In this document: one piece after another, positions 544 to 22,160 of the stretch
Layout of the letters: every line of letters begins with the position of its first letter
Numbering within the stretch: position 1 is the first letter of the stretch
Virus record (IMG/VR): IMGVR_UViG_3300021387_000796
Coordinates: 32,001-96,000 of that record
DNA length: 64,000 bases
From: a virus
Taxonomy: Duplodnaviria > Caudoviricetes
Reading direction: 5' to 3' (one strand)
The notes under the pieces: generated by a model
Databases searched by the model: none
Told to the model about the DNA's origin: nothing
What the model saw: only the letters and a program-made list of their open reading frames with translations
Translations under genes and position numbers: made by a program

Positions 544-623
544 GTAATCCGTAAGTTCCGCTAAAACCTATGGTGCATTTCTTAGCGGAACTTAGTGCAT
601 TGTAGGAGGAATTTATGGATTAT
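544..623 (+). promoter_or_regulatory. Bistable RNA leader that can sequester the RBS/start of the endonuclease gene
   Basis: 544-559 pairs with 608-623 (16 bp, 3 GU) and 567-579 pairs with 594-606. An alternative perfect 13-bp helix forms between 552-564 and 582-594. Confidence 0.65.
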
Positions 624-1823
624 ATCTCTGTTAAAAAACTTTCAGAAAAATACAAAATTGATTTCTATCAGTTTATTTCTTATCTTGAATTTTTGAACAT
701 TCCTATTGAAATCGAAAATAATGCTAAATGTGTTCTCATTGAGAATATTCCTATTATTGAAAAATTTGTTTCTACTTATACAACGAATCAGATAAAATAT
801 ATTAAATCACATAATATTAAAAATTTTTACGAAGGTACTCTTCTTTTAGATTTGCTTAAAAAATATAATCTAAATGAAAAACAATTTAGAATAAAATGCG
901 AACATGTTAATCTTGAATTCAAATATGTTTATTCTAATGAAGAATGTGAAAGATTTGATGAATTTATGAAAAGTATCTCAACGTTTAATCGTGCGGAATT
1001 AAGAGATTTGAAATATACTAAAGATGGTTGGATTCCATTAAGAAATATTATTGATAAACTTGGTAAAAAATATGATTTTTGTGAAAATACTGCGTTAGCG
1101 ATTCTTGAACATCTAGGAATTAAAGTTTATAAACCATCTCATCAATTTGCTTTCATTAATGAAGAGCAGAAAGAAAAATTTGAAGATTTTCTTAAAGGAT
1201 TTGGTTCGGCAAAAGAAAGAAAATTATTTTTTCAAGAACAAACTTGTATGAAAAAATATGGAGTTGATAATCCTTCTCGTTCTAATGAAGCGAGAAACAA
1301 GATTTCTGAAAAAGTAAAAGAATCTTGTACTGATGAAAGACAAAAGAAAATAGAAGAAACCAAATTAAAGAAATATGGTAAACGTTCAATTACTGATTCA
1401 GAAAAATCAATGAAAAGTAGAATTGAAAATCACGGAACTTTATCAGTAACGCATCAATATATGTTTGAGAAATTAGAATTTCATAGTTCATGGGAAGTTT
1501 ATTTTTATATTTATAATAAATATATTCTTAAAAATAATATAACTAAAGGCAAGATTTTTGAATATAAATATAATGGTAATATTCATCGTTATGAATGTGA
1601 TTTCTTAGTAAATGGTGAAAATATTGAAATTAAAGGTGGACAATTGTTAGATGAAGATGGAAATCTTAAACAAATGAAAAATCGTGAATGGGATATGTGT
1701 AAACAAAAATGTATGGAAGAAAATAATGTGAAACTCATTATAAAGAAAGATATAATTAAAATTATGAAAATTGTAGATGAAAAATATGGTAAAAATTATG
1801 TAGAACAGTTTAAAACAAGATGA
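615..1823 (+). CDS. Putative free-standing homing endonuclease (KYGVDNP-type repeats + C-terminal PD-(D/E)XK domain)
   Basis: TCMKKYGVDNPS repeat; C-terminal FHSSWE...YECDFLVNGENIEIKG. Confidence 0.65.
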   Translation: MDYISVKKLSEKYKIDFYQFISYLEFLNIPIEIENNAKCVLIENIPIIEKFVSTYTTNQIKYIKSHNIKNFYEGTLLLDLLKKYNLNEKQFRIKCEHVNLEFKYVYSNEECERFDEFMKSISTFNRAELRDLKYTKDGWIPLRNIIDKLGKKYDFCENTALAILEHLGIKVYKPSHQFAFINEEQKEKFEDFLKGFGSAKERKLFFQEQTCMKKYGVDNPSRSNEARNKISEKVKESCTDERQKKIEETKLKKYGKRSITDSEKSMKSRIENHGTLSVTHQYMFEKLEFHSSWEVYFYIYNKYILKNNITKGKIFEYKYNGNIHRYECDFLVNGENIEIKGGQLLDEDGNLKQMKNREWDMCKQKCMEENNVKLIIKKDIIKIMKIVDEKYGKNYVEQFKTR

Positions 1824-1826
1824 TTT

Positions 1827-3158
1827 ATGGAGAAATACATGAAAATATACAACGAAACCAATGTGTTTGAAGAATCTCAGAAACGGATAGAATTTCTATT
1901 CGACCGTTATCAGAATATAATTGTACCATTCAGTGGTGGTAAGGATTCAACTGTTTGTCTAAATCTTGTTGTTGATTATGCTAGGAAACATAATCTGATT
2001 GACCGAGTTTGTATTGTACATGAAGATTTTGAAGCACAGTATGATATGACTACGGAATTTGTTGATGAAACCTTCAAATCATTGTCTGATATAAAGCATA
2101 AATATTGGTTGTGTCTACCGTTCAAGGCTCAGAATTGTTGCTCGTTGGAATCGAAGGGGTTTTGGAGACCTTGGAATAAAGAACAGAGAGAAATTTGGGT
2201 AAGAGAATTACCGAACTATGATTATGTAGTTACGGAAGAAAATTGTCCGTTTAATTTTGATTATGAATGGTGGGATAAGGATTTGTTATCTGCATTTTCA
2301 AATTGGTTTTCTAGTAAATATGGAAAATCTGTGAATGCTTGTGGCATTCGAGCAGAAGAATCTTATGACCGTTACATGTTGGTTACAAGTGGTTCACATT
2401 CTTTTGACAATCACCGCATTGAAAGTGGCAACAGATGGATTGTGGAAAATGAACTTTCATCGATGTCATATCCGATTTATGATTGGATTGTAGAAGATGT
2501 ATGGGTGTACTTTGCGAAGAGTGGGAAGACATATAACAAGTTGTATGATTTGTATTATAAAGCAAGTCTTTCAGTAGACCAAATGCGTGTAGCAAGTCCA
2601 TTCAATAATCAAGCCAATGCAACATTAAAATTTTATAAGTGTATTAATCCTTCGATGTGGGGAAGAATGATTTCTCGTGTACAAGGTGCAAACTTTGTTT
2701 CCCTTTATGGTGATACAAAACTTATGGGATGGAGAGATTGTAAACTTCCGAAAAACTACACATGGAGAACTTACTGTGAATTTTTGCTGAACACTTGTAG
2801 CGAAGATGTGAAAAATCATTTTATAGAAAAGTTTACTACTAGTATAAGTTATTGGTGTAAGGGAAAAGGTGCATTCATTGACCCACAGAGCATCGATGAG
2901 ATACACGAATTTTATAAAGATATTGAAATTGAAGATTTGGGAGAAAGTTCTAGATATAAAAATAAACATCTTGTGAGGTTTAAGAATTATCCTGACGATT
3001 TAAGTTTGTGTAAGAAATGGATGGATTTACCGTCTTACAAGAGAATGTGTGTAACAATTTTGAAGAATGATTACATTTGTAAAACAATGGGATTTTCACC
3101 TAGCAAGACGGAATCAGAAAAAAGAAAAATAGCATTGGAAAAATTTAAGGAGTTGTAA
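1827..3158 (+). CDS. ibrA: PAPS-reductase-family / DUF3440 protein (IbrA-like)
   Basis: FSGGKDS PP-loop, GIRAEES, YPIYDWxxEDVW, QMRVASPF, PSYKRMCVTILKND; followed by a ParB-like partner. Confidence 0.85.
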   Translation: MEKYMKIYNETNVFEESQKRIEFLFDRYQNIIVPFSGGKDSTVCLNLVVDYARKHNLIDRVCIVHEDFEAQYDMTTEFVDETFKSLSDIKHKYWLCLPFKAQNCCSLESKGFWRPWNKEQREIWVRELPNYDYVVTEENCPFNFDYEWWDKDLLSAFSNWFSSKYGKSVNACGIRAEESYDRYMLVTSGSHSFDNHRIESGNRWIVENELSSMSYPIYDWIVEDVWVYFAKSGKTYNKLYDLYYKASLSVDQMRVASPFNNQANATLKFYKCINPSMWGRMISRVQGANFVSLYGDTKLMGWRDCKLPKNYTWRTYCEFLLNTCSEDVKNHFIEKFTTSISYWCKGKGAFIDPQSIDEIHEFYKDIEIEDLGESSRYKNKHLVRFKNYPDDLSLCKKWMDLPSYKRMCVTILKNDYICKTMGFSPSKTESEKRKIALEKFKEL

Positions 3159-3160
3159 TT

Positions 3161-3787
3161 ATGGAAAAGAAAATTACGGTGAATTATGAAAATACTCATA
3201 CTTTTGAAAGATGTTGGGATTTGACAGACGAAGAAATAGAACAGATGAATAACTCTGATTATGTTTCACCGATTTATGAAGTGAAGAAAATTCCGATAGA
3301 ATTGATTAAAGCAAATAATTATAATCCAAATGCTATGGATAAAAATATCTTTGAACTTCTTCATACTTCTATGATTGAAAGTGGTTGGACGCTTCCTTGT
3401 GTTGTAGCACCAAATAACGATGAAGATAAAGACAAGCATCCCTATGTGTTGGTTGATGGTTTTCACAGAGTTTTGATTATGTCACTCTACAAGGATATTT
3501 ATATTCGTGAAAAAGGTGTAGTTCCTTGCGTAGTGTTGAATAAAGACCAAAATCGATATGACCGTATGTTTGCTACAATTTTGCATAATAGATGTAAGGG
3601 AACTCACGATATCGATATTATGTCGAATATTATTACGGAACTTGTTTCAAGTGGTCTGTCTGATTATGAGATTCAGCGAAGATTGGGAATGGATAAAGAA
3701 GAATTATTAAGATTGAAACAGTTGACAGGTCTTGCTAGTTTATTTGCTGATAAAGAATTTTCAAAAAGTTGGAAGTTTGAAGAATAG
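3161..3787 (+). CDS. ibrB: ParB/Srx-like nuclease domain protein (IbrB-like)
   Basis: IKANNYNPNAM, LVDGFHR, ATILHNRCKGTH, LGMDKEELLRLKQLTGLASLF. Confidence 0.85.
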   Translation: MEKKITVNYENTHTFERCWDLTDEEIEQMNNSDYVSPIYEVKKIPIELIKANNYNPNAMDKNIFELLHTSMIESGWTLPCVVAPNNDEDKDKHPYVLVDGFHRVLIMSLYKDIYIREKGVVPCVVLNKDQNRYDRMFATILHNRCKGTHDIDIMSNIITELVSSGLSDYEIQRRLGMDKEELLRLKQLTGLASLFADKEFSKSWKFEE

Positions 3788-3796
3788 GAGAAAGTT

Positions 3797-4412: not shown

Positions 4413-5966
4413 TTACGAATTTGCAGTGAGGTTTTCAAGAGTAACCACAGTAGCGAAGTGTTTGTTGTTAATTTTGCTATCAGCATAAACACCCAAGCCC
4501 ATCTGTGAATTAAAATTCTTAAGTTCAACTGGGTTTGTAGTGATACCTGTTCCGTAAGTTCCGATTGATACAGGTGCATCAACATTCTTGCTTTCTGTAC
4601 TCTTACCGAAGAGATAGAGTTTGCCTTCATTAGCACCGTTACCGATGATTGATTTAGGAGCCATATAAACTCCACGACCATCGATATCACCTACCTTGAA
4701 GATACCAACTTTGCTTGTAGGTTTAACACCAACAAACTTGTTGTGCTTTGTAAGGTAAGAATAAGATGTTGAATCACAAACGATGTTTGTTTCATCAGCA
4801 AGACGACCAATTGCATCATATGGGAGGTTTTCACCATTGATGATTGCAGAAATTACTGACTGTGCGTGAGCGTAAGAAGAGTCAGCACCAGCAGTTGCGA
4901 AGTCTGTATCAAATGTTACAGGAGCGTGCCATGTAGAAGCCTTGATACCCTTTGCAATACATCTTTCATCGAATGCTTTACGGAATTCGTCACCTGCACC
5001 TGCAATAAGCATATCTTTAGCAGAAAGTCCGAGTTTTGAATTCATCAAATCTTCAGAGAAACGTGTCCATTCTACTTCGAGTGGGTAAAGAATAGCAGAG
5101 AACTGATATTCAACCAAGTTCAAGAGAACAGAACCTGTTCTTGGGAAGAGGGCAGGGTCTTCGAAATCATAAGCGTACTGTACTGTAACTTCAGCACTAG
5201 CACCACCACTTACTGCACTTGCAAATACTACAGAAATAGCACCACTTGTGTAGTTTACAGTTGAAGGAGTTGATGTATCAAGAGTAGCACCAACAAGAAC
5301 ACCACTACCATTATCAGTTGCTACTTGTGTACCATCAAGGAATACAGATACCTTGAAAGGAATAAGTGGAGCATAAGAAAGTGTAGCAGTCCATGTTACA
5401 CCTGCATCAGCAGAAGTAAGTGTTTCTTGCTCGAATGTAGAAGGATAACGACCTTCGCCGTAGTTTTCATAAACTACATTGCCTTCTGTTGCACCACGAG
5501 CAGTTGAACCGTAAGTTGTTTCCAACTTGTAAAGGCTATCTTTCATTGATGACATACCCCAAACATCAAATACATCTTGTGCGATTGAGTTTGTGTAAGC
5601 AATACGAGAAATCTTTACGATATCGGTTGGCAACATGAGAGCCATTGTTCCACCAGTCTGCATTGCTTCTTTCATCTGACCTTCTGTCATTGATTTGATA
5701 GCCTGCTCTTGGAGAACATTCTGTGCGATTGTAGGATTTCTACGAGCCTGAATTTCAGAGTTCTCAAGGAACAAAATAAGATTTTCAGCCTTTTTAGCAT
5801 CCTTCTCGAACATCTCTTCAAGTTTACCCTTTCCGAGTGCGAGACCCTTTGATTTTGAATATTTTTCCTTCAGTTTAAGGATTTTATTCTCTCTTTCTGA
5901 GAGTTTTTCATTGTAAATTGAACGAGCCTTATCTTCGCTCATTCTCATAACTTTTCCGAAACCCAT
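4413..5966 (-). CDS. Major capsid protein (T4 gp23-like / jumbo-phage type) with an inserted beta-rich domain
   Basis: ~517 aa; charged N-terminal propeptide-like region; ...LEVEWTRFSEDLMNSKLGLSAKDMLIAGAGDEF... gp23-like segment; highly expressed codon usage. Start chosen at ATG 5966 after SD AAGGTG (track start 5987). Confidence 0.75.
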   Translation of the reverse strand: MGFGKVMRMSEDKARSIYNEKLSERENKILKLKEKYSKSKGLALGKGKLEEMFEKDAKKAENLILFLENSEIQARRNPTIAQNVLQEQAIKSMTEGQMKEAMQTGGTMALMLPTDIVKISRIAYTNSIAQDVFDVWGMSSMKDSLYKLETTYGSTARGATEGNVVYENYGEGRYPSTFEQETLTSADAGVTWTATLSYAPLIPFKVSVFLDGTQVATDNGSGVLVGATLDTSTPSTVNYTSGAISVVFASAVSGGASAEVTVQYAYDFEDPALFPRTGSVLLNLVEYQFSAILYPLEVEWTRFSEDLMNSKLGLSAKDMLIAGAGDEFRKAFDERCIAKGIKASTWHAPVTFDTDFATAGADSSYAHAQSVISAIINGENLPYDAIGRLADETNIVCDSTSYSYLTKHNKFVGVKPTSKVGIFKVGDIDGRGVYMAPKSIIGNGANEGKLYLFGKSTESKNVDAPVSIGTYGTGITTNPVELKNFNSQMGLGVYADSKINNKHFATVVTLENLTANS

Positions 5967-6242
5967 AGTTTTCACCTTTTGTTTCATCGATTGAGGTTTT
6001 TAGTTTGCTTTACACGAAAGAATTACTAAAATACCTATAAGATATATAGTTATCGGCATGAACAAAAGATTTCTAACAAATTCTAAAAAATCTCACTGAT
6101 ACATTTTTAAAAATCAAAGCATATAATTTCGACTTCGTATCAACCGCACCTCATATAAAAATCTTGACGGTTTATTGCCAATTAAACTTTTCTTTATAAT
6201 AAATAGTTAATATTTTTTATTAACATCCAACATAATAAATAG

Positions 6243-6551
6243 TTAATATTTTTTAACTTTTACATTTAAATTAGAAGCATCTTTAATTAAATTTAAAATA
6301 TATTGATAATCTTCATCAGTTCCATTGTCTATTTTAAATTCTATATAATCTCCGTTTTTATTTGATACTATAATTTCGATATCATCTTCATAGCCATCAA
6401 TAAAACCTATTTTAGAAAATGATAAAAATTTATCAGCAATTTCTAATGTATCAAGAAGAGCATTTTCGCCAAAAATTTCATAATTTTTTAAACCTCGCAT
6501 AAAAGGTTCTAAATCTCCGCCAAAACCCACACTTGTTATTTTAAATCTCAT
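6243..6551 (-). CDS. Hypothetical protein
   Basis: ORF with GAGG RBS and upstream TAACTAT motif. Confidence 0.55.
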   Translation of the reverse strand: MRFKITSVGFGGDLEPFMRGLKNYEIFGENALLDTLEIADKFLSFSKIGFIDGYEDDIEIIVSNKNGDYIEFKIDNGTDEDYQYILNLIKDASNLNVKVKKY

Positions 6552-6600
6552 AATGTACCTCTTTTAATAAAAATTAATTGTTTTATAAGATAGTTAAAAT

Positions 6601-6633
6601 AAAAAGACCTAGATGATTTTTATAGGTCTTTTT
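6601..6633. terminator. Intrinsic terminator-like hairpin
   Basis: AAAAAGACCTA...TAGGTCTTTTT. Confidence 0.6.
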
Positions 6634-6669
6634 ATTTTAATTTGGTTTGTATTTCACTTTAATTGTACC

Positions 6670-6847
6670 ACCTTATTTATATATTGAATAAAAAGAGATT
6701 TCATAAAAACGGATTTAGAAAAGACAAATTAAAAAAATACTTGATAAAGGAAAGATTAAAATATATTCTCATAATATGATTGAATTGGAAATATGCCGAC
6801 AGAACTGCGTTTACGATTGCGGTACTGTGAAAATGGAATATAAATAG
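6670..6847 (+). pseudogene. Frameshifted 3' remnant of a homing endonuclease gene related to 8254..10335
   Basis: Two frames give YILNKKRFHKNGFRKDKLKK and KKILDKGKIKIYSHNMIELEICRQNCVYDCGTVKMEYK*, aligning with YIVNGKRIHKSNFRKDKIKKMFERGGLEFYDSDKTEHEIMKKNKIYRIYDCGTMKVIYE. Confidence 0.75.
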
Positions 6848-6856
6848 GAGAATAAT

Positions 6857-8068
6857 ATGATTGAAATTAAAGGAAAATATAACAATGCTAAAGTTTTCGT
6901 AGATGATTATGACAAGTTGGAAGAAGCATGTTATAAACAGATTTTGAATTTGTTGAATCAGAAATTTTCAGAAGGTTCACAAATCAGAATTATGGAAGAT
7001 TGTCATGCAGGAAGTGGATGTGTAATTGGTTTTACTCAAACAATTGTTAATAAAATTGTTCCAAATTTGGTTGGAGTAGATATTGGTTGTGGAATGCAAG
7101 TTCTTAAAATATCTAAAGATTTTCATTTTGATTTAAAAAACTTGGATAAAGTATGGCGAGCGAACATTCCTATGGGAATGGCACACAGAAGTACAAAACA
7201 TAAATTCTGCGAAAATATAAATCTCGATAATATTATTACACCAATTAACAAAGAAAAAGAATTACTTGCTCTTGGCTCATTAGGTGGAGGAAATCATTTT
7301 GGCGAATTAGATATCGATAAAGAAGGGAATTATTATCTTGTAATTCATAGCGGTTCTCGACATTTAGGAATTGAAGTTTGTAAATATTGGCAGAATAAAG
7401 CAATTGAATATCATAAAAATCACATCAAGGAAAAAACTGAAATCATTGAACGACTTAAGAGAGAAGGTCGTGAAAAAGAAATTCAGTCTGAACTTGATAA
7501 ACTAGAATTTGAAAAAGTTCCAAATGAACTTGCATATCTTGAAGGTGAAGATTTGAAAGGATATTTACATGATATGGAAATTGCACAAAATTTTGCTTAT
7601 TGGTCAAGAAAGGCTATGCAAGATGAAATTTGTAAAGCATTGAATATTAAGAAGAAACATATTCTTGATGAATTCTGTACAGTTCATAATTATGTAGATA
7701 TTAAAAATAAGATTATTCGTAAAGGTTCTATCTCAGCATACAAAGATGAAATTGCAATTATTCCTATGAACATGGCTGACGGTTCTTTAATTGTAAAAGG
7801 TAAAGGAAACGAAGATAGAAATTGTTCTGCTCCTCATGGTGCAGGTCGTCTTATGTCACGTTCTATGGCTAAAGAATCTCTTAAAATGGAAGATTTCAAG
7901 AAGTCAATGAAAGATGTTTACACAACTTCTGTTTGTGTAGGAACTATAGATGAATCACCTATGGCTTACAAACCTATGGAACAGATTCTTGAAACTATTG
8001 GAGATACTTGTGAAGTTTTGAAAATTATAAAGCCGATTTGGAATGTAAAGGCGAACGATGGAGAATAA
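6857..8068 (+). CDS. rtcB: RtcB family RNA ligase
   Basis: DCHAGSGCVIG, VGVDIGCG, GSLGGGNHF, IHSGSR, HNY, RKG, SAPHGAGR, DESPMAYK. Confidence 0.95.
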   Translation: MIEIKGKYNNAKVFVDDYDKLEEACYKQILNLLNQKFSEGSQIRIMEDCHAGSGCVIGFTQTIVNKIVPNLVGVDIGCGMQVLKISKDFHFDLKNLDKVWRANIPMGMAHRSTKHKFCENINLDNIITPINKEKELLALGSLGGGNHFGELDIDKEGNYYLVIHSGSRHLGIEVCKYWQNKAIEYHKNHIKEKTEIIERLKREGREKEIQSELDKLEFEKVPNELAYLEGEDLKGYLHDMEIAQNFAYWSRKAMQDEICKALNIKKKHILDEFCTVHNYVDIKNKIIRKGSISAYKDEIAIIPMNMADGSLIVKGKGNEDRNCSAPHGAGRLMSRSMAKESLKMEDFKKSMKDVYTTSVCVGTIDESPMAYKPMEQILETIGDTCEVLKIIKPIWNVKANDGE

Positions 8069-8140
8069 ATTTTTAATTATTTCTCTTTAAATTTATGATT
8101 TTTTACTTGATTAAATATTTAGAATTTATTATATTTAATT

Positions 8141-8253
8141 GTGAGAGGACAGTATGCTACCAACATATTGATTTCATATTCCTTTATGAAATCTAACTCT
8201 TAACTATTTATGTTGTCATTGGTAGTGACATAAAAGTTAAAACATTTAAGGAA
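8141..8253 (+). ncRNA. Dual-loop structured RNA/leader cassette (element B)
   Basis: Promoter TTGATT-N17-TATATT (8107-8135). Loop CTACCAA (8157-8163) is complementary to downstream loop TTGGTAG (8219-8225). Loop TTCCTT (8179-8184) is complementary to AAGGAA (8248-8253). TAACTAT at 8201. Confidence 0.6.
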
Positions 8254-10335: not shown

Positions 10336-10340
10336 TAAAT

Positions 10341-10371: not shown

Positions 10372-10387
10372 ATTTTAATTTATTATT

Positions 10388-13262: not shown

Positions 13263-13715
13263 ATGATTACTTTAAATTCTTTAACAATTGATTTACTTCG
13301 TATAATTGGTGAAGCAAATAAAATTTGTTCGAATTTATTGACGGAATCATTTCTCAATGAAGATATGAAAGTCGATGTTAAAACTTTTGTATCTTTATTA
13401 AATTCATATAGCAACACTCTTGAAAAAATTTTGGATAATAGAGAATTTTTATCAAATAACGGAATATTGGATAGGTCTTTACATGATGTTTCTATAACCA
13501 AAGAAAAGGCTTTGAAAGCATTGAACGGATTAAACCACATTTGTAATAATTGTAAAGATACAGTAAAACGAAACATCTTAATAAACGCTACAACACATTT
13601 CAAAGAAGTCGTAAATACTTATCTGTTTGCAATTAAAATATATCTTGAAGAAGTATTTCCTAATACAGATGAAAATACTATCTTAAAGAGATATGATTTA
13701 TATGAAATTGAATAG
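13263..13715 (+). CDS. Hypothetical protein
   Basis: GGAGG RBS and TTGACA promoter at 13213. Confidence 0.6.
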   Translation: MITLNSLTIDLLRIIGEANKICSNLLTESFLNEDMKVDVKTFVSLLNSYSNTLEKILDNREFLSNNGILDRSLHDVSITKEKALKALNGLNHICNNCKDTVKRNILINATTHFKEVVNTYLFAIKIYLEEVFPNTDENTILKRYDLYEIE

Positions 13716-13728
13716 GAGAAAATAAATT

Positions 13729-14394
13729 ATGGCAAGATTTGGATTGGAAAATATTGATAGAGATTTCTTTTGGGAATTAGTCGATGAAGGATATGTTTCT
13801 TATAGTATTATTGACGCTTATCTTTATATGCTTTCACAGAAGTTGAGCAAAGATACGGATATTCACTTTAGAGTAGAGAATGGTTATTTGTATAATGATG
13901 AAATTGGATTCAAGATTCCAACCTCTACAATTACTACTTATGATAATCTGCTGAAAGATATCGAAAAGTTTTTGTCAGAAAATGCTCAAGAGAATGAGTT
14001 TGGTGTAGATACCAATAAACTTGCTAATCAATGGGCATATACATTTTCTCATACAGAAATGTCTCCATACTATGAAGGTGATGGTCATTGGAAAGCATAT
14101 GATGATTATTCACAAAAACGTGTTTGGGAAGCACTATACTTTATGGTTTTTGGAAAATATCATGATAATATGGATTGGGCATTCGATACGGCTAGTGAAT
14201 ATTTAATAAAAGACGGTAATAACTATAATGAAAAATTCCATTTCAAAGGAACGGTTTCTGAATTAGATAATATATCTGTTACATTTGCTAAAAACGGTAA
14301 TATTTCTGTAAAAAATCCAAGTAAAGAATATCTTGAAAAATTGCAATTTTTCTATGATGTTTGCGACCCAAAGAATAAGAATCATGCTAGATAA
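13729..14394 (+). CDS. Hypothetical protein, paralog of 38939..39601
   Basis: Shared N-terminal ...KLS...IGFK... and C-terminal F.kNG.v.mK...w...C..K patterns. Confidence 0.6.
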   Translation: MARFGLENIDRDFFWELVDEGYVSYSIIDAYLYMLSQKLSKDTDIHFRVENGYLYNDEIGFKIPTSTITTYDNLLKDIEKFLSENAQENEFGVDTNKLANQWAYTFSHTEMSPYYEGDGHWKAYDDYSQKRVWEALYFMVFGKYHDNMDWAFDTASEYLIKDGNNYNEKFHFKGTVSELDNISVTFAKNGNISVKNPSKEYLEKLQFFYDVCDPKNKNHAR

Positions 14395-14422
14395 AATAAA
14401 TTAAATTTGATATTATTATTTT

Positions 14423-14611
14423 GATTGAAAGGAATGATAGGCGGTCAACCTATTGATAGAATATCCTAGTTCTGTCTAACCTTTCAATCTTTTTTAACTA
14501 TCTTATATAAACATTAACTATTTATATCAGTATTGCAGATATGATAATTATGTAAAAATTTTAGGTGAATATATTGTAGACCTAAACTTTGATAAATTAT
14601 ATTAATAGGAT
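14423..14611 (+). ncRNA. Dual-loop structured RNA/leader cassette (element D)
   Basis: Outer stem 14423-14432/14480-14489 followed by a U-tract. Loop ATCCTA (14463-14468) is complementary to SD TAGGAT (14606-14611). Tandem TAACTAT at 14495 and 14515. Confidence 0.55.
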
Positions 14612-14619
14612 GGTGAATT

Positions 14620-14904
14620 ATGAATAATTTAGAAATAGCACAAAGTAAATTAAAATATTCAGACCATGAATTTTTTATTAAAGACAATAATGAAGATTTT
14701 AAATATTGGAATCAGTTATATCTTTCTTTGACTCAACTAGATAATTTGGAAGATATTATTTTTACAGTAAGACGTGCTGATTGTGGAGGAGTTATTCAAA
14801 TTGATAAAAACAAACTCTCTATTAGAGTAGATGCTGATAAAGGTAAGTTGCCTTTGTTTTGGATAGAATATGATATAATTAATGATATTATAATTTTCTT
14901 TTAA
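14620..14904 (+). CDS. Hypothetical protein
   Basis: 94-aa ORF behind cassette D. Confidence 0.5.
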   Translation: MNNLEIAQSKLKYSDHEFFIKDNNEDFKYWNQLYLSLTQLDNLEDIIFTVRRADCGGVIQIDKNKLSIRVDADKGKLPLFWIEYDIINDIIIFF

Positions 14905-14957
14905 TGAATGGAAATTTTTCAATTTAGTATTGTTTTATTCTTTCCTTTAATGATATA

Positions 14958-15776
14958 TTGAAGGAAAGAATTTTTTATAAATGTAGGAATAATATGGGAA
15001 TTTTAAAACCGTTTTCAGAAGTAAAATGTGATAAATGCGATTCAAATGGATTCATCGTTGGTGAGAGTTCAGCAGTGAAATGTTCATGTAGAATGAAATA
15101 TGAATATGAACTCAAAGCGAGTAATATTCTTTCCAAAAGCGGATTACTTGATGAAAACTCTACTTATGAAGATTTCAAGAAACTGATTGATTTTGATTGG
15201 TCTGATTATCGTGGAAAAGATGAAAACGGAAATCTGAAAAAGTTACAGAAATATGTAGAAGAATTTGATTCAGATAAAAAACCTTTTAAGCATTTACACT
15301 GTTATGTATGGGGTGGGCAAGGTACACAAAAGTCATACACTACAAAAGGTGTTTTGACAAAGTTGGCAATCAAGGGAAAATCAGTTTATTACATTTTCGC
15401 TAAAGATTTGATTTCTTTACTTCATGATTCTGAACGAGATGAAGAATTGAAAAAGAAGTTAGATTACATTAAAAATGTTGATGTTTTGGTAATTGATGAA
15501 TTCGAGGAACAAAGATGTTGTTTATGGCAGAGCGGATACAAGGAACGTTTGCTTATTGTTTGGTTGAAAGAACGTCTTGAAGTTGTCAGAAAGTCAACAT
15601 GGTTTATTTCAAACGATTCTATGGAGGAACAGAAAGAAAGTAAATTTGGAGAATTATTTGGTGACATGCTTGACAGGGAGACGAAATTCGGAAGATTTGA
15701 ATTTAAAGACAAGTATTCAGATTATATCACCAAGGAAGAAATAGAAGAAACCATGAAAAATATTTGGGATGATTAA
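14958..15776 (+). CDS. DnaC/IstB-like AAA+ helicase loader
   Basis: N-terminal CxxC...CxC; variant Walker A GGQGTQKS; Walker B VLVIDE; FISN sensor 1. Start may be ATG 14994. Confidence 0.75.
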   Translation: MKERIFYKCRNNMGILKPFSEVKCDKCDSNGFIVGESSAVKCSCRMKYEYELKASNILSKSGLLDENSTYEDFKKLIDFDWSDYRGKDENGNLKKLQKYVEEFDSDKKPFKHLHCYVWGGQGTQKSYTTKGVLTKLAIKGKSVYYIFAKDLISLLHDSERDEELKKKLDYIKNVDVLVIDEFEEQRCCLWQSGYKERLLIVWLKERLEVVRKSTWFISNDSMEEQKESKFGELFGDMLDRETKFGRFEFKDKYSDYITKEEIEETMKNIWDD

Positions 15777-15788
15777 GAGGTTATAAAA

Positions 15789-16458
15789 ATGTCAGATATT
15801 AAATTATATAACGATGATTGTATTAAATTTATGGGGGGGGGTGAAGGATAAATCTATTGATTTTATTTGCACAGACATTCCTTATGATGAAGTTAATCGA
15901 AAATCGCAAGGGTTGAGAAAATTAGATAAAACAAATGCTGATGTTTGTACATTTGATTTAGATGAGTTTTTGATTCAATGTTATAGAGTGTGTAAAGGTA
16001 GCATTTGTATATTTTGTGGAATGAAACAATTTTCAAAAATATATGATTTCTTTTCACAAAAAGAAGGAACTGTTAGATGTATTGTTTGGAAAAAAACGAA
16101 TCCTTCTCCTATGAACGGTCAACATATTTATTTAAGCGGTGCAGAACTTTGTGTTTGGTTTAAGCCTAAAGGTTGGAAAACATTTAATGCATTTTGTAAA
16201 TCAAATGTTTTTGAATATCCTTGTGGTGGAAGTAAAGTACATCCTACACAAAAAAATTTAAAATTGATAACTGAATTAATTGAAAATAATACAAATAAAG
16301 GAGATTTAATTTTGGATACTTGTATGGGAAGTGGAACTTGTGGAATTGCTTGTGCGAATACAAATAGAAACTTTATTGGAGTTGAATTAGACGAAAATTA
16401 TTACAATATTGCTAAGAAACGAATAGAAGAAAGCAATACTAATTTGTTTGATTTGTAA
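15789..16458 (+). pseudogene. N4/N6 DNA methyltransferase interrupted by a G9 homopolymer frameshift (intact with G8)
   Basis: ATG 15789 after SD AGAGG reads MSDIKLYNDDCIKFMGGGEG*. Removing one G from 15833-15841 gives ...FMGGVKDKSIDFICTDIPY...HPTQK...ILDTCMGSGT. Confidence 0.85.
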
Positions 16459-16469
16459 AAGGAGAAAAT

Positions 16470-17249
16470 ATGGTATATCAAGGTAGTAAAGCGAAACTAA
16501 GAAAATACATTTTACCGATTTTGCAAAATTGTATAAATGAAAATCATATTGAAAATTATTATGAACCATTCTGCGGAGGTGCAAATATGATAGACCATAT
16601 CCAATGCAAAAATAGAATTGGTTCAGATATAAATTCAGAATTGATTGAACTCTTAAAATATATGAGAGATAATCCTAATCTCGATATCTTTCCTCAAGAT
16701 TGTTCTTTTGAACATTATTCTGATGTAAGAGAAAACAGAAAGAATAAAACAAATAAATATTCTATTCCTTATACAAGCGGAATTGGATATTTTGCTAGTT
16801 TTGGCGGAAGATATTTCGATGGTGGTTATGGAAAAGACCCTAGCGGTAAAAGAAATATTTATCATGAGAGATTAGAATACGCAAAAGAACAAGCATCCTT
16901 ATTGAAAGGAATAGAATTTGGTATACATTCTTTTGAAGATTATGACCCTAATTATTTTAATCAATGTTTGTTTTATTTAGACCCACCGTACAGAGATACA
17001 AAAATTTATAATGGTAAAGATGGATTTCCTTATGATTTATTTTATGATTGGTGTAAAAAATTAGGAAAGAACAACTATGTTTTTATTTCTGAATATTATA
17101 TGCCTTCCGACTTTAAATGTATTTGGAGTAAAGAAAGAAAAATAATGCAAAAATCAGATAGAGAAAAAGGTGAAGTTGCAGTTGAAAAATTATTCACAGT
17201 TGGAAAATCAAGTAACAATAATTTGGAAAAAGGTTTGTTTGACTTGTAA
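16470..17249 (+). CDS. D12-class (Dam-like) adenine methyltransferase
   Basis: YQGSKAK, YYEPFCGGAN, GSDIN, YLDPPY, FISEY. Confidence 0.9.
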   Translation: MVYQGSKAKLRKYILPILQNCINENHIENYYEPFCGGANMIDHIQCKNRIGSDINSELIELLKYMRDNPNLDIFPQDCSFEHYSDVRENRKNKTNKYSIPYTSGIGYFASFGGRYFDGGYGKDPSGKRNIYHERLEYAKEQASLLKGIEFGIHSFEDYDPNYFNQCLFYLDPPYRDTKIYNGKDGFPYDLFYDWCKKLGKNNYVFISEYYMPSDFKCIWSKERKIMQKSDREKGEVAVEKLFTVGKSSNNNLEKGLFDL

Positions 17250-17258
17250 GGAAATTGT

Positions 17259-17345
17259 ATGAATCACGATGTTTTGATTATTTTAATTTTATTATTGACT
17301 TCTTTCGGATTGGGTTATATTTTTGGTAAATCTAAAAAGAAATAG
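17259..17345 (+). CDS. Small single-TM protein
   Basis: MNHDVLIILILLLTSFGLGYIFGKSKKK with AAGGA RBS (below ORF-track cutoff). Confidence 0.5.
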   Translation: MNHDVLIILILLLTSFGLGYIFGKSKKK

Positions 17346-17369
17346 ATTATATTTATATGGAGGAAATAT

Positions 17370-17813
17370 ATGATTAAATTTCATGAAGTAATTGAACCTA
17401 TGCAGAAAGTTGAAGGAGAAACTTCTCTACCTAGACGTGCTACAAAAGGTAGCGGTGCGTATGACTTTTATGCAAAGACAAATTACACAGTAAAGCCAAA
17501 TGAAATTGTAAAGATTTGGACTGATGTTTGTGCTGAAATGGATGAAGATAAAGTGTTACTTATAAACATTCGTTCTTCCATGGGTTCGACTTGGAATCTT
17601 ATCAATGAGCAAGGTTGGGTGGATAGTGACTATATCAATGCCACAAACGGGGGCAATATAGGCATTTTCTTACAGAATAAAACTAATGAAGTTCAGACGA
17701 TTAATAAGGGTGATAGAATTGGACAAGGTATGTTTGTTTCTTATTTTACTACTGTTGATGATGAACCTATCAGCGAAGAACGTACTGGCGGATATGGAAG
17801 TACAGGAAAATAA
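17370..17813 (+). CDS. dut: Trimeric dUTPase
   Basis: AYDFY, RSS, GWVDSDY, GDRIGQG, RTGGYGSTG. Confidence 0.95.
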   Translation: MIKFHEVIEPMQKVEGETSLPRRATKGSGAYDFYAKTNYTVKPNEIVKIWTDVCAEMDEDKVLLINIRSSMGSTWNLINEQGWVDSDYINATNGGNIGIFLQNKTNEVQTINKGDRIGQGMFVSYFTTVDDEPISEERTGGYGSTGK

Positions 17814-17940
17814 TTAAAAATATTTTTAGATTTATGTTGACAAATTACATAAATCTATCTATATTAAGATTATAGGTCGTTGACCAAAGAATAAATTTAC
17901 CGTGAAGTGCTACATATGATTGTAGTCGAGGAGAAAAATT

Positions 17941-19323
17941 ATGGCAGAAATGACTGCGGAAGAAAAAGCAAAGGCTCGCTTGGCAAAGTTCCAAGAAGCA
18001 AAAAAGAAGGCTGAGGAAGCCAAACAACATGGGGATTTTCCAAAGGAAGATGTTCCTGATTTCAAAACATGTGTACTCAAAAAGGACCAAGCCAAAATCA
18101 TTAGATTGTTAGGCAATTCACCACTCATGCGTGAATCGGTTTATGACCCTCTTATTGTAAAACGTGCGTTCGTTAAAACTGATGATGATAAATGGACTAC
18201 AATTATCATGTCTGAGGACCGTGACCATCCTGTAAATAAGTTATGGCGAACAATTATTGGTAAGTATAAGTATGACAAAGAAAATAAGACAAAAAATTTC
18301 GAAAACAAAGGTAAACCTTCTTTTGAAAGATTTATCAGAAATGGTAAGAAAGTAGAAGATTGTTTGGCTTCAGAAAAAGGTATGATGACAGATACATTCT
18401 ATCTGTTTAATTGTTTGGACCGCACAGATTCATGGTGCGAGGAAAATAAGCATACCAAACTTCTCTGTTGGGATTCTACAACTAAAGAAGTTGATGGAAA
18501 GACTGTTGAATATCCAACATATGGAATCAAACCAAGTCTTTATAACAATATTTTCGATGAACAGTGTACTGCTCTTAATCGCATGTATGATGAATTTGAT
18601 GTAGTCGTAAAGCGTTTGAGCAAGAAACTTGGTGAATCTTGGATTCAGATTTTCTCACCTGAAGAAAAGTCAAAGATTTCACAGATTGGATTAGACCCAA
18701 ATAAAGTAACTATGAATTATCTCACAGAAGATGAGGAAAATTATGAGAAATATAAGTTGGAAGATATACCTTTTATTTCTCGTCCAACATCAGCATCTTA
18801 TGTAAACAAGGTGCTTGGTAAACTCATCAAGCAAGCAGATATTGATTTTGGTACTAATCTTCAGAGTGATTTTGCTGAATGGATTGAAAAAGAGAAGAAA
18901 GAATGGGAAGCCAAGAAAGCCGAAACAAAGGAAAGTGAACCAACAGAAGATGCTTCTACAGAAGTAGAATCAGAAGATGAAGAAGTTACAGAAGAAACAC
19001 CAAGTTTTGATTCTATGAAAACTGTTGAAACAGAATCTTCAGAAGACGATGAACTTCCGAGTGAGGTTGAAGAACCTACACCGACAGTAACAAAGAAAGT
19101 TGTAAAAACTGCAAAAACTGTTTTTGACCCACTTTCTCTCAAATCAGAATTTCCTTACATTGATAAATTGAGAGCCGAAGATTTAGCACTCATTACAGGT
19201 TATAATTCTGAAACTAGCGAACTGACATTTAAGGAAGGAACTGACCTCGCCGAATGTCCTTGCGGATGCACGATTGCTGACCCATTCCAGTCTTGCCCTA
19301 AATGTGGTGCGGTTTTTGGTTAA
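17941..19323 (+). CDS. Putative single-stranded DNA-binding protein (gp32-like) with acidic region and C-terminal Zn ribbon
   Basis: IIRLLG / YLFNCLDR / FDVVVKR pattern, long Glu/Asp-rich tail, own strong promoter (17837) and terminator. Confidence 0.55.
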   Translation: MAEMTAEEKAKARLAKFQEAKKKAEEAKQHGDFPKEDVPDFKTCVLKKDQAKIIRLLGNSPLMRESVYDPLIVKRAFVKTDDDKWTTIIMSEDRDHPVNKLWRTIIGKYKYDKENKTKNFENKGKPSFERFIRNGKKVEDCLASEKGMMTDTFYLFNCLDRTDSWCEENKHTKLLCWDSTTKEVDGKTVEYPTYGIKPSLYNNIFDEQCTALNRMYDEFDVVVKRLSKKLGESWIQIFSPEEKSKISQIGLDPNKVTMNYLTEDEENYEKYKLEDIPFISRPTSASYVNKVLGKLIKQADIDFGTNLQSDFAEWIEKEKKEWEAKKAETKESEPTEDASTEVESEDEEVTEETPSFDSMKTVETESSEDDELPSEVEEPTPTVTKKVVKTAKTVFDPLSLKSEFPYIDKLRAEDLALITGYNSETSELTFKEGTDLAECPCGCTIADPFQSCPKCGAVFG

Positions 19324-19345
19324 TAATAACTAATTATGAATAATT

Positions 19346-19377
19346 AAAGGAACGAGATTATTTCTCGTTCCTTTTTT
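19346..19377 (+). terminator. Intrinsic terminator
   Basis: AAAGGAACGAGA-ttatt-TCTCGTTCCTTTTTT. Confidence 0.85.
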
Positions 19378-19438
19378 ATTTCAATATTGATAAACAGAAC
19401 TATTTATTTTATATTTGTGTTGTATGGAGGAATTTTCT

Positions 19439-19780
19439 ATGGAATATCTTTTGCAGAACACTAAGGTGTTTGTGATTTTGTACATTGTTTCAATTGTATG
19501 TACAATTATGTTTTCAGAAATTGTGAAAAAGTTCGACAAAAATGATAAACTTAAAGGCTACAAAGTTTGGTTGCCTTTTATCTTTTCTTGCGGATTCTCA
19601 GTAGCACTTAAATTTGTTTTTAAAGTTGATTGGATGCTTATGATTTTCATCGAAGGAAGTATGTTTGGATTTTCTGTATTTGGATATGAAGTTATTTTGA
19701 AGTCTATTAATAAACTTATTTGTAAAGCATCAGAAAAGATTGAAAATATATTTGAAAACATATTTAAAAAATCTGAATAA
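19439..19780 (+). CDS. Small multi-TM protein, holin candidate
   Basis: Three hydrophobic segments and a charged C-terminus; GGAGG RBS; GAACTAT variant upstream. Confidence 0.45.
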   Translation: MEYLLQNTKVFVILYIVSIVCTIMFSEIVKKFDKNDKLKGYKVWLPFIFSCGFSVALKFVFKVDWMLMIFIEGSMFGFSVFGYEVILKSINKLICKASEKIENIFENIFKKSE

Positions 19781-19852
19781 AATAGGCGGTTTAAAATAAC
19801 TATTTACATCGTCTGCATAAGTAGACGATTTTAAATTTATGGAGATGGAATT

Positions 19853-20017
19853 ATGACAATAAAACTTACAAAACCTTATATACTAGAGGGTAGGAAATTC
19901 TGCGAGGGAACTGAATTGGTAATTGCTTCTGACGGTGAAACAGAAGAAGTAAATACAACTGCGGATGAACCTGAAAAAGAAACAGATTTCGGAATCGTGC
20001 CAAACGAAGAAAAATAA
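19853..20017 (+). CDS. Small acidic hypothetical protein
   Basis: MTIKLTKPYILEGRKF...; GGAG RBS; TAACTAT at 19797. Confidence 0.5.
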   Translation: MTIKLTKPYILEGRKFCEGTELVIASDGETEEVNTTADEPEKETDFGIVPNEEK

Positions 20018-20047
20018 ATACAATTTGGATTTATATGGAGGAATTAT

Positions 20048-20434
20048 ATGAAAGAATTACCAAAGACATTTTATAATGCTAAAAGAGAATTTGAGAAGTC
20101 CTTTAATTTTGCAATATCCAAAGCAAAAGATGAAAATAAAGATAAAGAACTTGAAAACTATGCCGTTTTATTTGCATTGATTCAAGAGTTTAATAATTTC
20201 TTATTCAAATACGAAGAAGAAGTTTCAGTTGCATTGAAAGACCGAATGGATGATTTGAAGAAATATAAAGTTTTTCTTTCAGATTTTGAGAAAAAGGTAC
20301 ATTATGATGATGAAGCGTCTTGGTTGTTTGTATCAGATATGAATTCAAAAGACTATGCAGAACTTACTAAAATACAAAATGATGAATTTTTGAGAAAAAG
20401 AGCAGAAAATAAAGTTTTGAACGGAGATTTTTAA
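20048..20434 (+). CDS. Hypothetical protein
   Basis: GGAGG RBS. Confidence 0.6.
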   Translation: MKELPKTFYNAKREFEKSFNFAISKAKDENKDKELENYAVLFALIQEFNNFLFKYEEEVSVALKDRMDDLKKYKVFLSDFEKKVHYDDEASWLFVSDMNSKDYAELTKIQNDEFLRKRAENKVLNGDF

Positions 20435-20522
20435 TAAAATCACTAGACAATTTTTATTTATTATGATAATGTAAAACTACAGATTTTCAAGGTCTGTAGT
20501 TTTTATTTATAAGGATAAATAT

Positions 20523-21944
20523 ATGAAAACAATCGAAGAACTAAAAGAACATTTTGAAGGTATTGAATTTTCAGACAAGTATATGGAAATTCTGAAATAT
20601 ATAAGGGAAGATGAGAATGCTAAACTCTCAATTCAAGGGAATGCTGGGTCAGGCAAGTCAACACTGCTTAAAATCATCAATTATATGTTTTCTGACGATG
20701 TTGAAAACAAGAGAATGAATGTTGCAATTGCTTCTTCCACAGGTGTCGCAAGTGCTTTGTTGAATAATGGAACAAATCTTGGTGCTACAACTATTCACTC
20801 GTTATTTCGCCTAAAACCAATTGACATTTTTGGTGCATTTACAAACTCTTCTTATTCACAGAAAGATTTGATTGGAAATATTGATTGCTTTATTTTTGAT
20901 GAAGTTTCTATGGTCAGTTGTGATATGTTCGATTATATAATGTCCATTATTCGTGTATGTCGAAGAGGAAAACCAACAAGAGTTATTTTGTTCGGGGACT
21001 GCTTGCAACTTCAATGTGTTGTTAAAATGGACGACCCTCAAGTAAAAGATTATTATATGACAAATTATAATGGAAATGTAGAATTCTTCTCATCGTTTGC
21101 ATTTAAGGATATGGGATTTGCTACGTTCTTGCTTACAAAAATATATCGTCAAAACGATACTGATGAAAAATTTAAAGATGTCTTGAATAGAATTCGTGTA
21201 TGTGAACAAACACAAGCCGACCTTGATTATTTGAATCAAAGGGTTATGAGTGAAGAAGATTATATTATGCAAAATGAATCTTTTTTGAGAATTGTGTCTA
21301 CAAACAAAGATGTGCAAAAATATAATCAGATTGCTTTGGACGCTATTGATGGAAAATTTATTTGTCTTACTGCTAAAATCAGCGGTAATTTCCGTGAAAC
21401 TTCAGAGTTTAAAAATGGTTTCTTTGCTGAAAAGATTTGGGTAAAAATCGGTTGTCCTGTTATGATTTTACGCAACGCATCTCCAAATGAAAATGGAATT
21501 CGTGATTATTATAACGGTAGTATGGGAACATTGATTTCTTGTAACGATGATTATGCTATTGTAGATTTGGGTGATAGAGAAGTAAAAGTTGAACGTTCAG
21601 TAACAAATAATTATGAATATGAACTTGTAGAAGAAAACGGACACACTGCCGTAAAAAGTAAAATAACAGGTTCTTATGATAATATCATGATTAAAGTTTG
21701 CAGTGCTTCAACTATTCATAAGACACAAGGACTTACACTTTCGAGAGCATATATAGACTATGGTAATTGGCTCCCAGATAATGGTTTGTATGTTGCTTTA
21801 AGTAGATTCCGTTCTATCAAGGATTTCGGGTTAGCAAAGCCTATAAAAATGCGAGATATTCACGCTACACAAGAAAGTCTAAATTATGTGAAAAATAATG
21901 AATTTTTTGAAAATGTGTATAATGAGATGTTTGGAAAAGATTAA
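20523..21944 (+). CDS. Pif1/RecD-like SF1B DNA helicase
   Basis: GNAGSGKST, TIHSLF, DEVSM, FGDCLQL, LTKIYRQ, TIHKTQGLT, YVALSR. Confidence 0.92.
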   Translation: MKTIEELKEHFEGIEFSDKYMEILKYIREDENAKLSIQGNAGSGKSTLLKIINYMFSDDVENKRMNVAIASSTGVASALLNNGTNLGATTIHSLFRLKPIDIFGAFTNSSYSQKDLIGNIDCFIFDEVSMVSCDMFDYIMSIIRVCRRGKPTRVILFGDCLQLQCVVKMDDPQVKDYYMTNYNGNVEFFSSFAFKDMGFATFLLTKIYRQNDTDEKFKDVLNRIRVCEQTQADLDYLNQRVMSEEDYIMQNESFLRIVSTNKDVQKYNQIALDAIDGKFICLTAKISGNFRETSEFKNGFFAEKIWVKIGCPVMILRNASPNENGIRDYYNGSMGTLISCNDDYAIVDLGDREVKVERSVTNNYEYELVEENGHTAVKSKITGSYDNIMIKVCSASTIHKTQGLTLSRAYIDYGNWLPDNGLYVALSRFRSIKDFGLAKPIKMRDIHATQESLNYVKNNEFFENVYNEMFGKD

Positions 21945-21991
21945 AATAAAACAATATTGATTTTAACAAAACATAACTATATTATTTAATT

Positions 21992-22158
21992 GATAAGCGA
22001 GATGTATTTCAAGTTGGTGCTTGAATTGACAGAATTCCTAATCTCATTTTGTCACATCTCGTTTATTTTTTTAACTATCTATTCTGAACATTAACTATTT
22101 TAATGTGAAAGTCGCACCAACGACTTTAAAGGTAAAATTATTTTATAGGAGATTAGGA
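21992..22158 (+). ncRNA. Dual-loop structured RNA/leader cassette (element C)
   Basis: Outer stem 21992-22005/22054-22067 plus U-tract. GTTGGTGC (22013-22020) is complementary to GCACCAAC (22114-22121). Loop TCCTAATCTC (22036-22045) is complementary to GAGATTAGGA (22149-22158). Tandem TAACTAT at 22072 and 22092. Confidence 0.7.
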
Positions 22159-22160
22159 TT

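Follow-up and report, generated by a model that had tools for sequence, protein, structure and literature searches.

Candidate C4-like antisense RNAs upstream of homing endonuclease genes in a large AT-rich phage

What is the function of the structured intergenic regions that precede endonuclease genes in a large AT-rich phage? We have studied three candidate regions, A, B and C, in a 64,000-nucleotide stretch of DNA (the window), corresponding to bases 32001-96000 of the phage genome IMGVR_UViG_3300021387_000796. The genome is a single contig of 218,066 bp with 29% GC; coordinates are window positions unless marked as genome positions or as those of a related locus (L or G numbers). A preliminary description had proposed that the regions share one architecture despite unrelated sequences, in which an upstream RNA with two hairpin arms has loops complementary to sites in the leader that follows. 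We find that all three belong to one homologous RNA family of 20 distinct cassettes, and that the two helices joining the RNA to the downstream leader covary. We think it probable, from the sequence, that the RNA is a C4-like two-site antisense repressor of the endonuclease's own translation, acting in trans and in cis.

The elements of a cassette follow a set order: a promoter-like element of the -10 type, a three-way-junction (3WJ) RNA, one or two copies of the motif TAACTAT[TC]T, a hairpin (H3), the Shine-Dalgarno sequence (SD) and the ATG. The 3WJ RNA is 61-76 nt in length, lies on the same strand as the downstream gene, and is placed 29-74 nt past the stop codon of the upstream gene. By minimum free energy (MFE) it consists of a closing stem and two hairpins, arm 1 with loop L1 and arm 2 with loop L2. 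Five cassettes are present in the genome, A, B and C within the window and D and E outside it. Their features are listed here, with scores for the covariance model R1 and for R2, a model made from subtype I (defined below) alone.

8107-8135, plus strand: A, promoter-like site TTGATT-17-TATATT, 9/12 consensus match, ending 6 nt before the first paired base
8142-8202, plus strand: A, 3WJ RNA of subtype III, -14.5 kcal/mol, z -3.85; R1 31.6 bits, E 2e-4
8157-8163 and 8179-8184, plus strand: A, loops L1 CTACCAA and L2 TTCCTT
8201-8209, plus strand: A, promoter-like motif TAACTATTT
8214-8230, plus strand: A, H3 (TGTCA-TTGGTAG-TGACA), with loop TTGGTAG at 8219-8225 a perfect complement of L1
8248-8253, plus strand: A, L2 target AAGGAA, adjoining ATG 8254 and 9 nt before ATG 8263
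8254-10335, plus strand: A, gene of 693 amino acids (aa), DUF7487 / PHROG 3339 'homing endonuclease'
14408-14416, plus strand: B, extended -10-like element TGATATTAT, 6 nt before the RNA, read by eye
14423-14495, plus strand: B, 3WJ RNA of subtype II with T-run, -24.2 kcal/mol, z -4.93; R1 E 2e-9, R2 E 0.02
14442-14448 and 14463-14468, plus strand: B, loops L1 CGGTCAA and L2 ATCCTA
14495-14503 and 14515-14523, plus strand: B, tandem motifs TAACTATCT and TAACTATTT
14606-14611, plus strand: B, TAGGAT beside the SD of a 94-aa open reading frame (ORF), a 6-nt L2 complement that is not above the non-cognate maximum
14620-14904, plus strand: B, the 94-aa ORF, without a family match and not an endonuclease
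21956-21985, plus strand: C, promoter-like site TTGATT, then TATATT (16-nt spacer) or TATTAT (18-nt spacer), with TAACTATATT at 21974-21983
21992-22072, plus strand: C, 3WJ RNA of subtype I with T-run, -27.9 kcal/mol, z -5.74; R1 E 3.5e-13
22014-22019 and 22036-22045, plus strand: C, loops L1 TTGGTG and L2 TCCTAATCTC
22072-22080 and 22092-22100, plus strand: C, tandem motifs TAACTATCT and TAACTATTT
22108-22127, plus strand: C, H3, with loop CACCAA at 22115-22120 complementary to L1 (8 nt with the closing pair)
22149-22158, plus strand: C, L2 target GAGATTAGGA (SD and flank), a 10-nt perfect L2 complement ending 2 nt before the ATG
22161-23495, plus strand: C, gene of a 444-aa endonuclease with DUF4379 zinc-finger repeats and a DUF2726-like C-terminus, PHROG 559/681/9084
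23515-23540, plus strand: C, far-end hairpin CCCTAG-N9-CTAGGG with T-run
Genome 14030-14096, plus strand: D, 3WJ, with L1/H3 TTTTCGC/GCGAAAA
Genome 199460-199389, minus strand: E, 3WJ, with L1/H3 TTGGACG/CGTCCAA and L2/SD CACAATCC/GGATTGTG

The shared architecture is confirmed by calculation. The MFE folds of A, B and C are all a closing stem with two hairpins (z -3.85, -4.93 and -5.74), and none of 200 shuffled sequences folds equally well. The same 3WJ is formed by all five genome copies, with z-scores from -3.9 to -6.2, and it is the MFE fold of 20/20 distinct cassettes. RNAalifold recovers it, with compensatory changes in 11 of 15 pairs. The stems contain G-U pairs that would be A-C mismatches if the opposite strand were read, and the structure is therefore assigned to the sense-strand RNA.

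Are the cassettes unrelated in sequence? This part of the preliminary description did not survive, because they align and match one covariance model; they are homologous, not convergent. Searches with endonuclease alignments led to the upstream regions of about 20 further genes, and every one of these genes that starts at residue 1 has the same cassette upstream. With about 15 cassettes from related contigs in IMG/VR and metagenomes added to the five of the genome, the total is 20, forming one RNA family with three subtypes set by the closing stem.

Subtype I: closing stem AGAGGTG; C, D, E and most relatives
Subtype II: closing stem GATTGAAAGG; B, L019 and L028
Subtype III: closing stem GAGAGGACAG; A, L030 and L035

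The model R2 finds subtype II at E values of 6e-4 to 0.02, and the alignment shows that arm 1 is almost identical in subtypes II and III. Downstream, all cassettes keep the TAACTATTT motif, the H3 stem (mostly AGTCA/TGACT) and an A-rich spacer. The loop columns are the fastest-evolving, with a pairwise identity of 0.43-0.44, compared with 0.66 overall and 0.79 in the arm-1 stem.

The first helix joins L1 to the loop of H3, and is perfectly paired over 6-9 nt in 15 of 16 representatives. In a matrix of these 16, the longest perfect complement of L1 has a mean length of 7.0 nt for cognate and 3.8 nt for non-cognate combinations, the corresponding duplex energies being -10.9 and -5.0 kcal/mol. 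The cognate sum was reached by 0/20000 permutations. Changes on both sides occur in all seven pairs of the helix, with no one-sided changes. In the alignment 95.2% of the cells are paired; shifting the partner by 1-3 columns lowers this to 32-45%, and the covariation was reached by none of 500 shuffles. There are 14 distinct L1 7-mers in 15 cassettes.

The second helix joins L2 to the SD and its gene-specific flank, and here seven of eight pairs have changed on both sides. In 13 of the 16 representatives, 0-8 nt separate the end of the L2 target from the ATG. The L2 sum was likewise unmatched in 20000 permutations, with duplex energies of -11.3 kcal/mol (cognate) and -7.1 kcal/mol (non-cognate). 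The target is GAGATTAGGA in C, GAGATTAAAA in L001, GGAGATTG in L039, GAGGTCGAA in L037 and AAAGGAGA in L030; others among the cassettes are GGAGAA, GGATTGTG and AAGGAA, and the change between subtypes is compensated. L2 is less private than L1 within a subtype. The duplexes formed are 7-10 bp long.

The C4-like logic of two loops that had been suggested is thus borne out by covariation among homologs, in L1-H3 (7/7 pairs) and in L2-SD (7/8). The individual complementarities reported for both loops of A and C, and for L2 of B, are found where they were placed, but L1 of B has no partner. Its longest match is 4 nt, and elsewhere in the genome there are coding-region chance matches only. The further suggestion that one partner loop always begins with UUNR holds for about 8 of 15 family members by hand count.

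Could the leader mask its own SD? When folded from the motif to 20 nt past the ATG, leaders were no more stable than shuffled sequences (z -0.6 to +0.1), H3 formed and the SD was open; a T4-type local hairpin containing the SD is not present in the cassette leaders. Any masking must consequently come from the 3WJ.

Unit C provides a direct view of the cassette as a mobile entity. In the related locus L083, where the helicase is 92% identical, the whole unit is absent between the helicase stop codon and the convergent downstream gene; the missing stretch comprises promoter, RNA, leader, endonuclease and terminator hairpin. Homology to L083 resumes about 13 nt past the far-end hairpin (at ~23553), which places the hairpin just inside the presence/absence unit. 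Because the unit is absent as a whole, the cassette is portable, and together with the covariation this upholds the earlier idea of a portable module of an endonuclease and its privately paired small RNA (sRNA). The genes have the traits of free-standing homing endonucleases, with membership of PHROG and Pfam families and, for unit C, presence or absence between conserved neighbors; their cleavage activity is a prediction.

The RNA and the nuclease are not tied to one another. Subtype III precedes a DUF7487 nuclease in A and a nuclease of the C/D/E type in L030 and L035, while the RNA subtype of B precedes an endonuclease of the C/D/E family in L019 and L028. From these sequences, RNA subtypes and nuclease families are shuffled. 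The genes after D and E are paralogues of gene C, to which they are 53-58% identical, and L025, a variant of C, has compensated changes in its arm-2 stem. The cassettes had been described as guarding endonuclease genes, and A and C do precede such genes, but B precedes the 94-aa ORF. An identical copy of B is found in the relative contig G002. In L019 the locus of B, with the same upstream gene end, holds a full cassette with its endonuclease. In A the gene more likely starts at ATG 8263 than at 8254, by the SD rule.

What transcripts would be made from a cassette? A -10-like hexamer lies 5-10 nt before the first paired base of every 3WJ in the family. In subtype I this element is often the TAACTATNT motif, and in most type-I members TAACTAT[TC]T stands 5-8 nt before the predicted 5' end of the sRNA. 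We considered TAACTAT as a cassette-specific box and rejected the idea because of its genome-wide intergenic distribution. Of the 64 copies of TAACTAT[TC]T in the genome, 61 are intergenic, and 52 point towards a gene that starts within 150 nt, the commonest distance to the ATG being about 30 nt. The motif stands before metabolic as well as structural genes, among them nrdD, a baseplate gene and the tail-sheath operon. Copies are found, for example, at 6201-6209, 6237-6245, 6588-6596 and 13102-13110 on the minus strand and at 19797-19805 and 24448-24456 on the plus strand. The motif looks like a general -10-only promoter element of the phage. A search for a phage sigma factor or RNA polymerase gave no Sigma70_r2, T7-type or Rpb1-type Pfam match, the T7-type control having matched nowhere. 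The preliminary description had an early sRNA acting on a late mRNA. This receives no support, because the same motif is placed before most type-I sRNAs as before the mRNAs, and before nrdD and structural genes.

On hand reading of the sequences, the closing stem leads into a T-run in 18 of the 20 cassettes, and in 4/5 genome copies. The form of an intrinsic terminator (a closing stem of 7-14 bp and then 5-8 T) is taken by B, C, D, E and most relatives, and not by A, which lacks a T-run and whose closing stem overlaps TAACTATTT with its 3' strand. The terminator scanner that we used deals with unbranched hairpins only. H3 starts 5-12 nt (mostly 5-9) after the last motif, and so would be the 5'-terminal hairpin of the mRNA; in C, where the distance is 7 nt, it probably has this role.

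These features suggest the following scheme. A -10-type promoter of its own would start the sRNA where the closing stem begins, and in most copies the sRNA would end at the T-run after that stem, so that a discrete small RNA is to be expected. The endonuclease mRNA would start a few nucleotides after TAACTATTT, with H3, the conserved A-rich spacer and the SD following in that order. The 7-nt L1 would kiss the loop of H3, serving as the specificity code, whereupon L2 would base-pair to the SD, together with the adjoining gene-specific bases as far as the start codon, and so exclude the ribosome. Such pairing could act in trans on mRNAs from the internal promoter, and in cis on transcripts that read through the terminator; cis action would be obligatory in A. 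The outcome would be a low or delayed synthesis of a potentially toxic nuclease. We infer the trans action from the RNA's own promoter element, the terminator before the target, the loop-on-stem design and the barcode-like diversification. The diversity of the loops is the pattern expected if cross-talk between copies matters. Cross-talk would matter only for an RNA acting in trans, which the barcode-like divergence fits.

Several observations weigh against this reading. The RNAs as transcripts are predicted from sequence, and the promoters are consensus-level calls in AT-rich DNA, where sigma70-like matches are common and scarcely enriched (114 found, 86 expected). In A, where a T-run is missing, the RNA must continue into the mRNA, so that this copy at least acts in cis. 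The L2-SD match is weak (5-6 nt) in L019, L028 and L021, and non-cognate L2 matches can equal the cognate length within a subtype. Several other endonuclease-like genes of the genome have no cassette. Three cassettes are degenerate, namely B with its G002 copy, L101 and D. Compared with L001 and L031, D has lost the SD and the L2 target by a 16-nt deletion (ATAGGAGATTAAAATT between AAAATTAT repeats; L014:460-482, genome 14159-14181, compared with L001:1470-1503), although its 442-aa ORF remains open. L101 (IMGVR_UViG_3300028886_001681, 51446-51515, minus strand) is an orphan subtype-I 3WJ with a T-run and TAACTATTT but no H3; an unrelated gene lies next to it, and it is probably a remnant of a lost endonuclease cassette. 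Both B and L101 thus keep an intact 3WJ without cognate H3 or endonuclease, which means that the fold can be retained for a different reason, such as a role in terminating transcription of the upstream gene. A comparison of 7900-23600 with three metatranscriptome contig sets from the same sample gave spurious matches of about 20 nt only, and has no bearing on expression.

The serious rival is a T4-like masking in cis only, in which the 3WJ and T-run serve mainly as the terminator and insulator that travel with the mobile cassette, the pairing silences read-through only, translation is free for mRNAs begun at TAACTATTT, as these do not contain the 3WJ, and no free trans RNA exists. It has a precedent in I-TevI, segB and Aeh1 mobE, where a promoter likewise lies between the masking element and the SD (PMC2988022). 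It accords with the read-through required in A, with the position of the 3WJs 29-74 nt past the upstream stop codon, where a terminator is needed, and with the retention of the orphan 3WJs of B and L101 without a target. However, it would leave the conserved -10 element before every 3WJ without a purpose and the near-unique barcodes (14/15) unexplained, and a strong terminator would make the masked transcript rare, yet the pairing is strictly selected. Moreover, stable stems carrying 7-nt loops, with a two-step kissing interaction, are typical of bimolecular antisense RNAs such as CopA/CopT and RNAI/RNAII, whereas T4-type cis masks are plain local hairpins. We regard masking in cis alone as possible but unlikely.

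The pairing might instead mainly alter the stability or processing of the RNA, by creating a site for a double-strand-specific RNase or by loss of a protective 5' hairpin. Stem-loops at the 5' end protect mRNA against 5'-end-dependent decay, H3 stands at the predicted 5' end, and duplexes of 7-10 bp are formed. In most copies, however, L2 covers the SD up to the start codon, which is sufficient to block initiation. The two effects are not exclusive. We consider stability very unlikely to be the principal one. Finally, a reading of the fold and boxes at the level of protein or DNA (autoregulation by an endonuclease that binds its own leader or promoter, as at the I-TevI operator, or a recombination or homing-site signal) with the RNA pairing incidental would find a parallel in the T4 intron endonucleases, which autorepress via an operator overlapping their own late promoter (PMC2988022), and in the inheritance of the cassette together with the nuclease gene, but is most improbable given strict Watson-Crick covariation between near copy-specific loops 90-110 nt apart, unlike a protein site, the same RNA subtypes before different nuclease families (A compared with L030 and L035), and stem G-U pairs that fix the structure to one RNA strand.

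If the RNA is an antisense repressor with trans action, a further step can be imagined. The L1/H3 barcode could be an incompatibility or immunity code, whereby a resident sRNA silences in trans the incoming endonuclease of a co-infecting phage that has the same barcode. We hold this to be doubtful. If true, endonucleases would escape through compensated changes of barcode, giving orthogonal 'RNA immunity groups' of homing endonucleases, an undescribed layer of conflict between mobile elements and phage genomes.

How widely is the family distributed? A descriptor scan and R1 found no copies in the 218-kb genome beyond the five. R1 gave no match in 35 loci with more distant endonuclease homologues, including those of Salmonella, Klebsiella and Vibrio phages, and an IMG/VR search with the exact tandem-motif pattern gave no match. 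The relatives of the phage are IMG/VR and metagenome contigs; among cultured phages, neither a megablast search with 6000-23500 nor a tblastn search with the tail sheath gave a match. From the R1 search of the 35 loci, the RNA family seems confined to this phage clade. The H3-plus-spacer signature is also present in L115 (CACYDA010000021.1), a 3.4-kb contig binned into the rumen Lachnospiraceae metagenome-assembled genome RUG11835. The contig gives a hint of where the phage clade lives, and perhaps of its host, the alternative being an artefact of binning.

The leader at 544-623 had been presented as a relative of the cassettes. It has no match to R1 and a different fold, without a 3WJ, and its pair CCGCTAA/TTAGCGG is the stem of one hairpin. 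We therefore rejected it as a related kissing pair; it is a single-hairpin stem with an alternative, self-masking fold. The MFE fold of 536-640 (plus strand; -35.5 kcal/mol, z -5.6) is long-range and buries the SD and AUG of a 402-aa gene (615-1823). It is mutually exclusive with a 12-bp hairpin AAGTTCCGCTAA/TTAGCGGAACTT, and on this modelling the leader may be a cis translational switch. A palindromic three-way structure of about 98 nt with perfect arms, -35 kcal/mol on either strand, lies at genome 175442-175539 between divergent genes by a baseplate gene. It was tried as a copy of the family and is unrelated; its possible roles are those of a bidirectional terminator or an origin-like element.

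Family searches show that the window encodes a tail sheath, baseplate wedge, NrdD, RtcB, helicases and several DNA methyltransferases; no tRNA or tmRNA was found in it. Homing or HNH-endonuclease-like genes without a cassette lie at 41147-42076 (minus strand), 37949-38407 (minus strand) and 52028-53152 (plus strand). The first shares sequence with the 3' end of nrdD, and its translation looks coupled to that of nrdD; the third has a plain hairpin terminator and TAACTATCT upstream. At 1827-3787 (plus strand) a PAPS-reductase/DUF3440 protein is followed by a ParB-N-like protein, a pair that we take to resemble IbrA/IbrB, with several DNA methyltransferase genes flanking (1-492, 15814-17249). At 5988-6250 (minus strand) two identical 23-nt repeats AAAAAATATTAACTATTTATTAT, 36 nt apart, head a leader of about 200 nt without an evident SD, which precedes a 524-aa gene (4413-5987).

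How do the cassettes compare with known systems? In CopA/CopT of plasmid R1, RNAI/RNAII of ColE1 and RNA I/RNA II of pAD1 par, kissing loops on stable stems block translation initiation. Such loops are the determinants of plasmid specificity and incompatibility, and diverge by compensated changes. The cassettes would resemble them in a recognition between short loops on stable stems. The plasmid RNAs are encoded opposite their target or have repeats in common with it, whereas the cassette regulator is upstream on the same strand and matches its target in two short patches. A full-text literature search found no paper linking homing endonucleases with kissing antisense RNAs.

The preliminary description had called the system undescribed. 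There is indeed no Rfam match in the window at gathering score, but the topology is that of int-alpA (Rfam RF02996), an orphan candidate sRNA, and the type of mechanism is known from C4 of phages P1 and P7. The likeness to int-alpA is one of topology only, two hairpins within a closing stem directly before a variable phage gene, with a consensus second loop that is pyrimidine-rich and anti-SD-like. In the Klebsiella phage VLCpiS13e a sub-threshold int-alpA match (26.2 bits, with a cut-off of 35.8 bits) precedes a homologous endonuclease gene by about 35 nt. However, the int-alpA model has no match at E <= 10 in our genome or in ten related loci, and neither R2 at E <= 1 nor R1 matches the Klebsiella int-alpA-like locus (L109). 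The cassette arms are longer, and the cassettes have a T-run, a promoter motif between RNA and targets, and the partner hairpin H3, for which there is no evidence in the Rfam motif.

In T-even phages, RBS-sequestering hairpins (RBS, ribosome binding site) with an internal late promoter are found at I-TevI, I-TevII, I-TevIII, segB and Aeh1 mobE (PMC2988022). The cassettes are similar in that pairing to the SD would limit translation of a homing endonuclease, and a promoter between mask and SD would give unmasked transcripts. The T-even masks are single local hairpins acting in cis only, whereas the cassettes have their mask in a separate 3WJ, which stands 90-110 nt upstream with a terminator in between and has a second, covarying recognition helix.

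The closest functional match is C4 of P1 and P7. This RNA of about 77 nt, with a basal stem and two hairpins, is encoded upstream of its target; its loop b' covers the RBS, its loop a' recognizes a site further upstream and determines the specificity, and changes in loops and targets between P1 and P7 are compensated (PMC5320573). Like C4, the cassette RNA is a small same-strand upstream RNA with a stem and two hairpins, and each of its two exposed loops has a complementary site on the downstream mRNA, that of the second loop overlapping the RBS. The Rfam C4 model (RF01695) gave no match at gathering score in the window, and none at E <= 10 in the whole genome, L014/L015 or ten related loci. 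C4 is processed by RNase P from an operon transcript, whereas the cassette RNA apparently has its own promoter and intrinsic terminator; the upstream target of the cassettes is itself a hairpin loop, giving a loop-loop kiss; and the cassettes occur in several orthogonal copies per genome. C4 controls the icd/ant immunity operon of a temperate coliphage, whereas the predicted targets of the cassettes are homing endonucleases of a large AT-rich phage. Such endonucleases are the main mobile elements of large phages, and their control has so far been seen in local RBS hairpins, promoter choice and autorepression in T-even phages. To these the present finding, backed by exceptionally clean covariation of two intermolecular helices, adds a candidate dedicated, portable and sequence-coded small RNA for each nuclease gene. 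It would provide the 3WJ topology, which the orphan int-alpA has too, with a function that can be tested, and at least 14 orthogonal pairs of kissing loop and anti-SD sequence are potential parts for synthetic control of translation. Above all, it would extend C4-type two-site control to a new class of gene, in phages of low-GC hosts.

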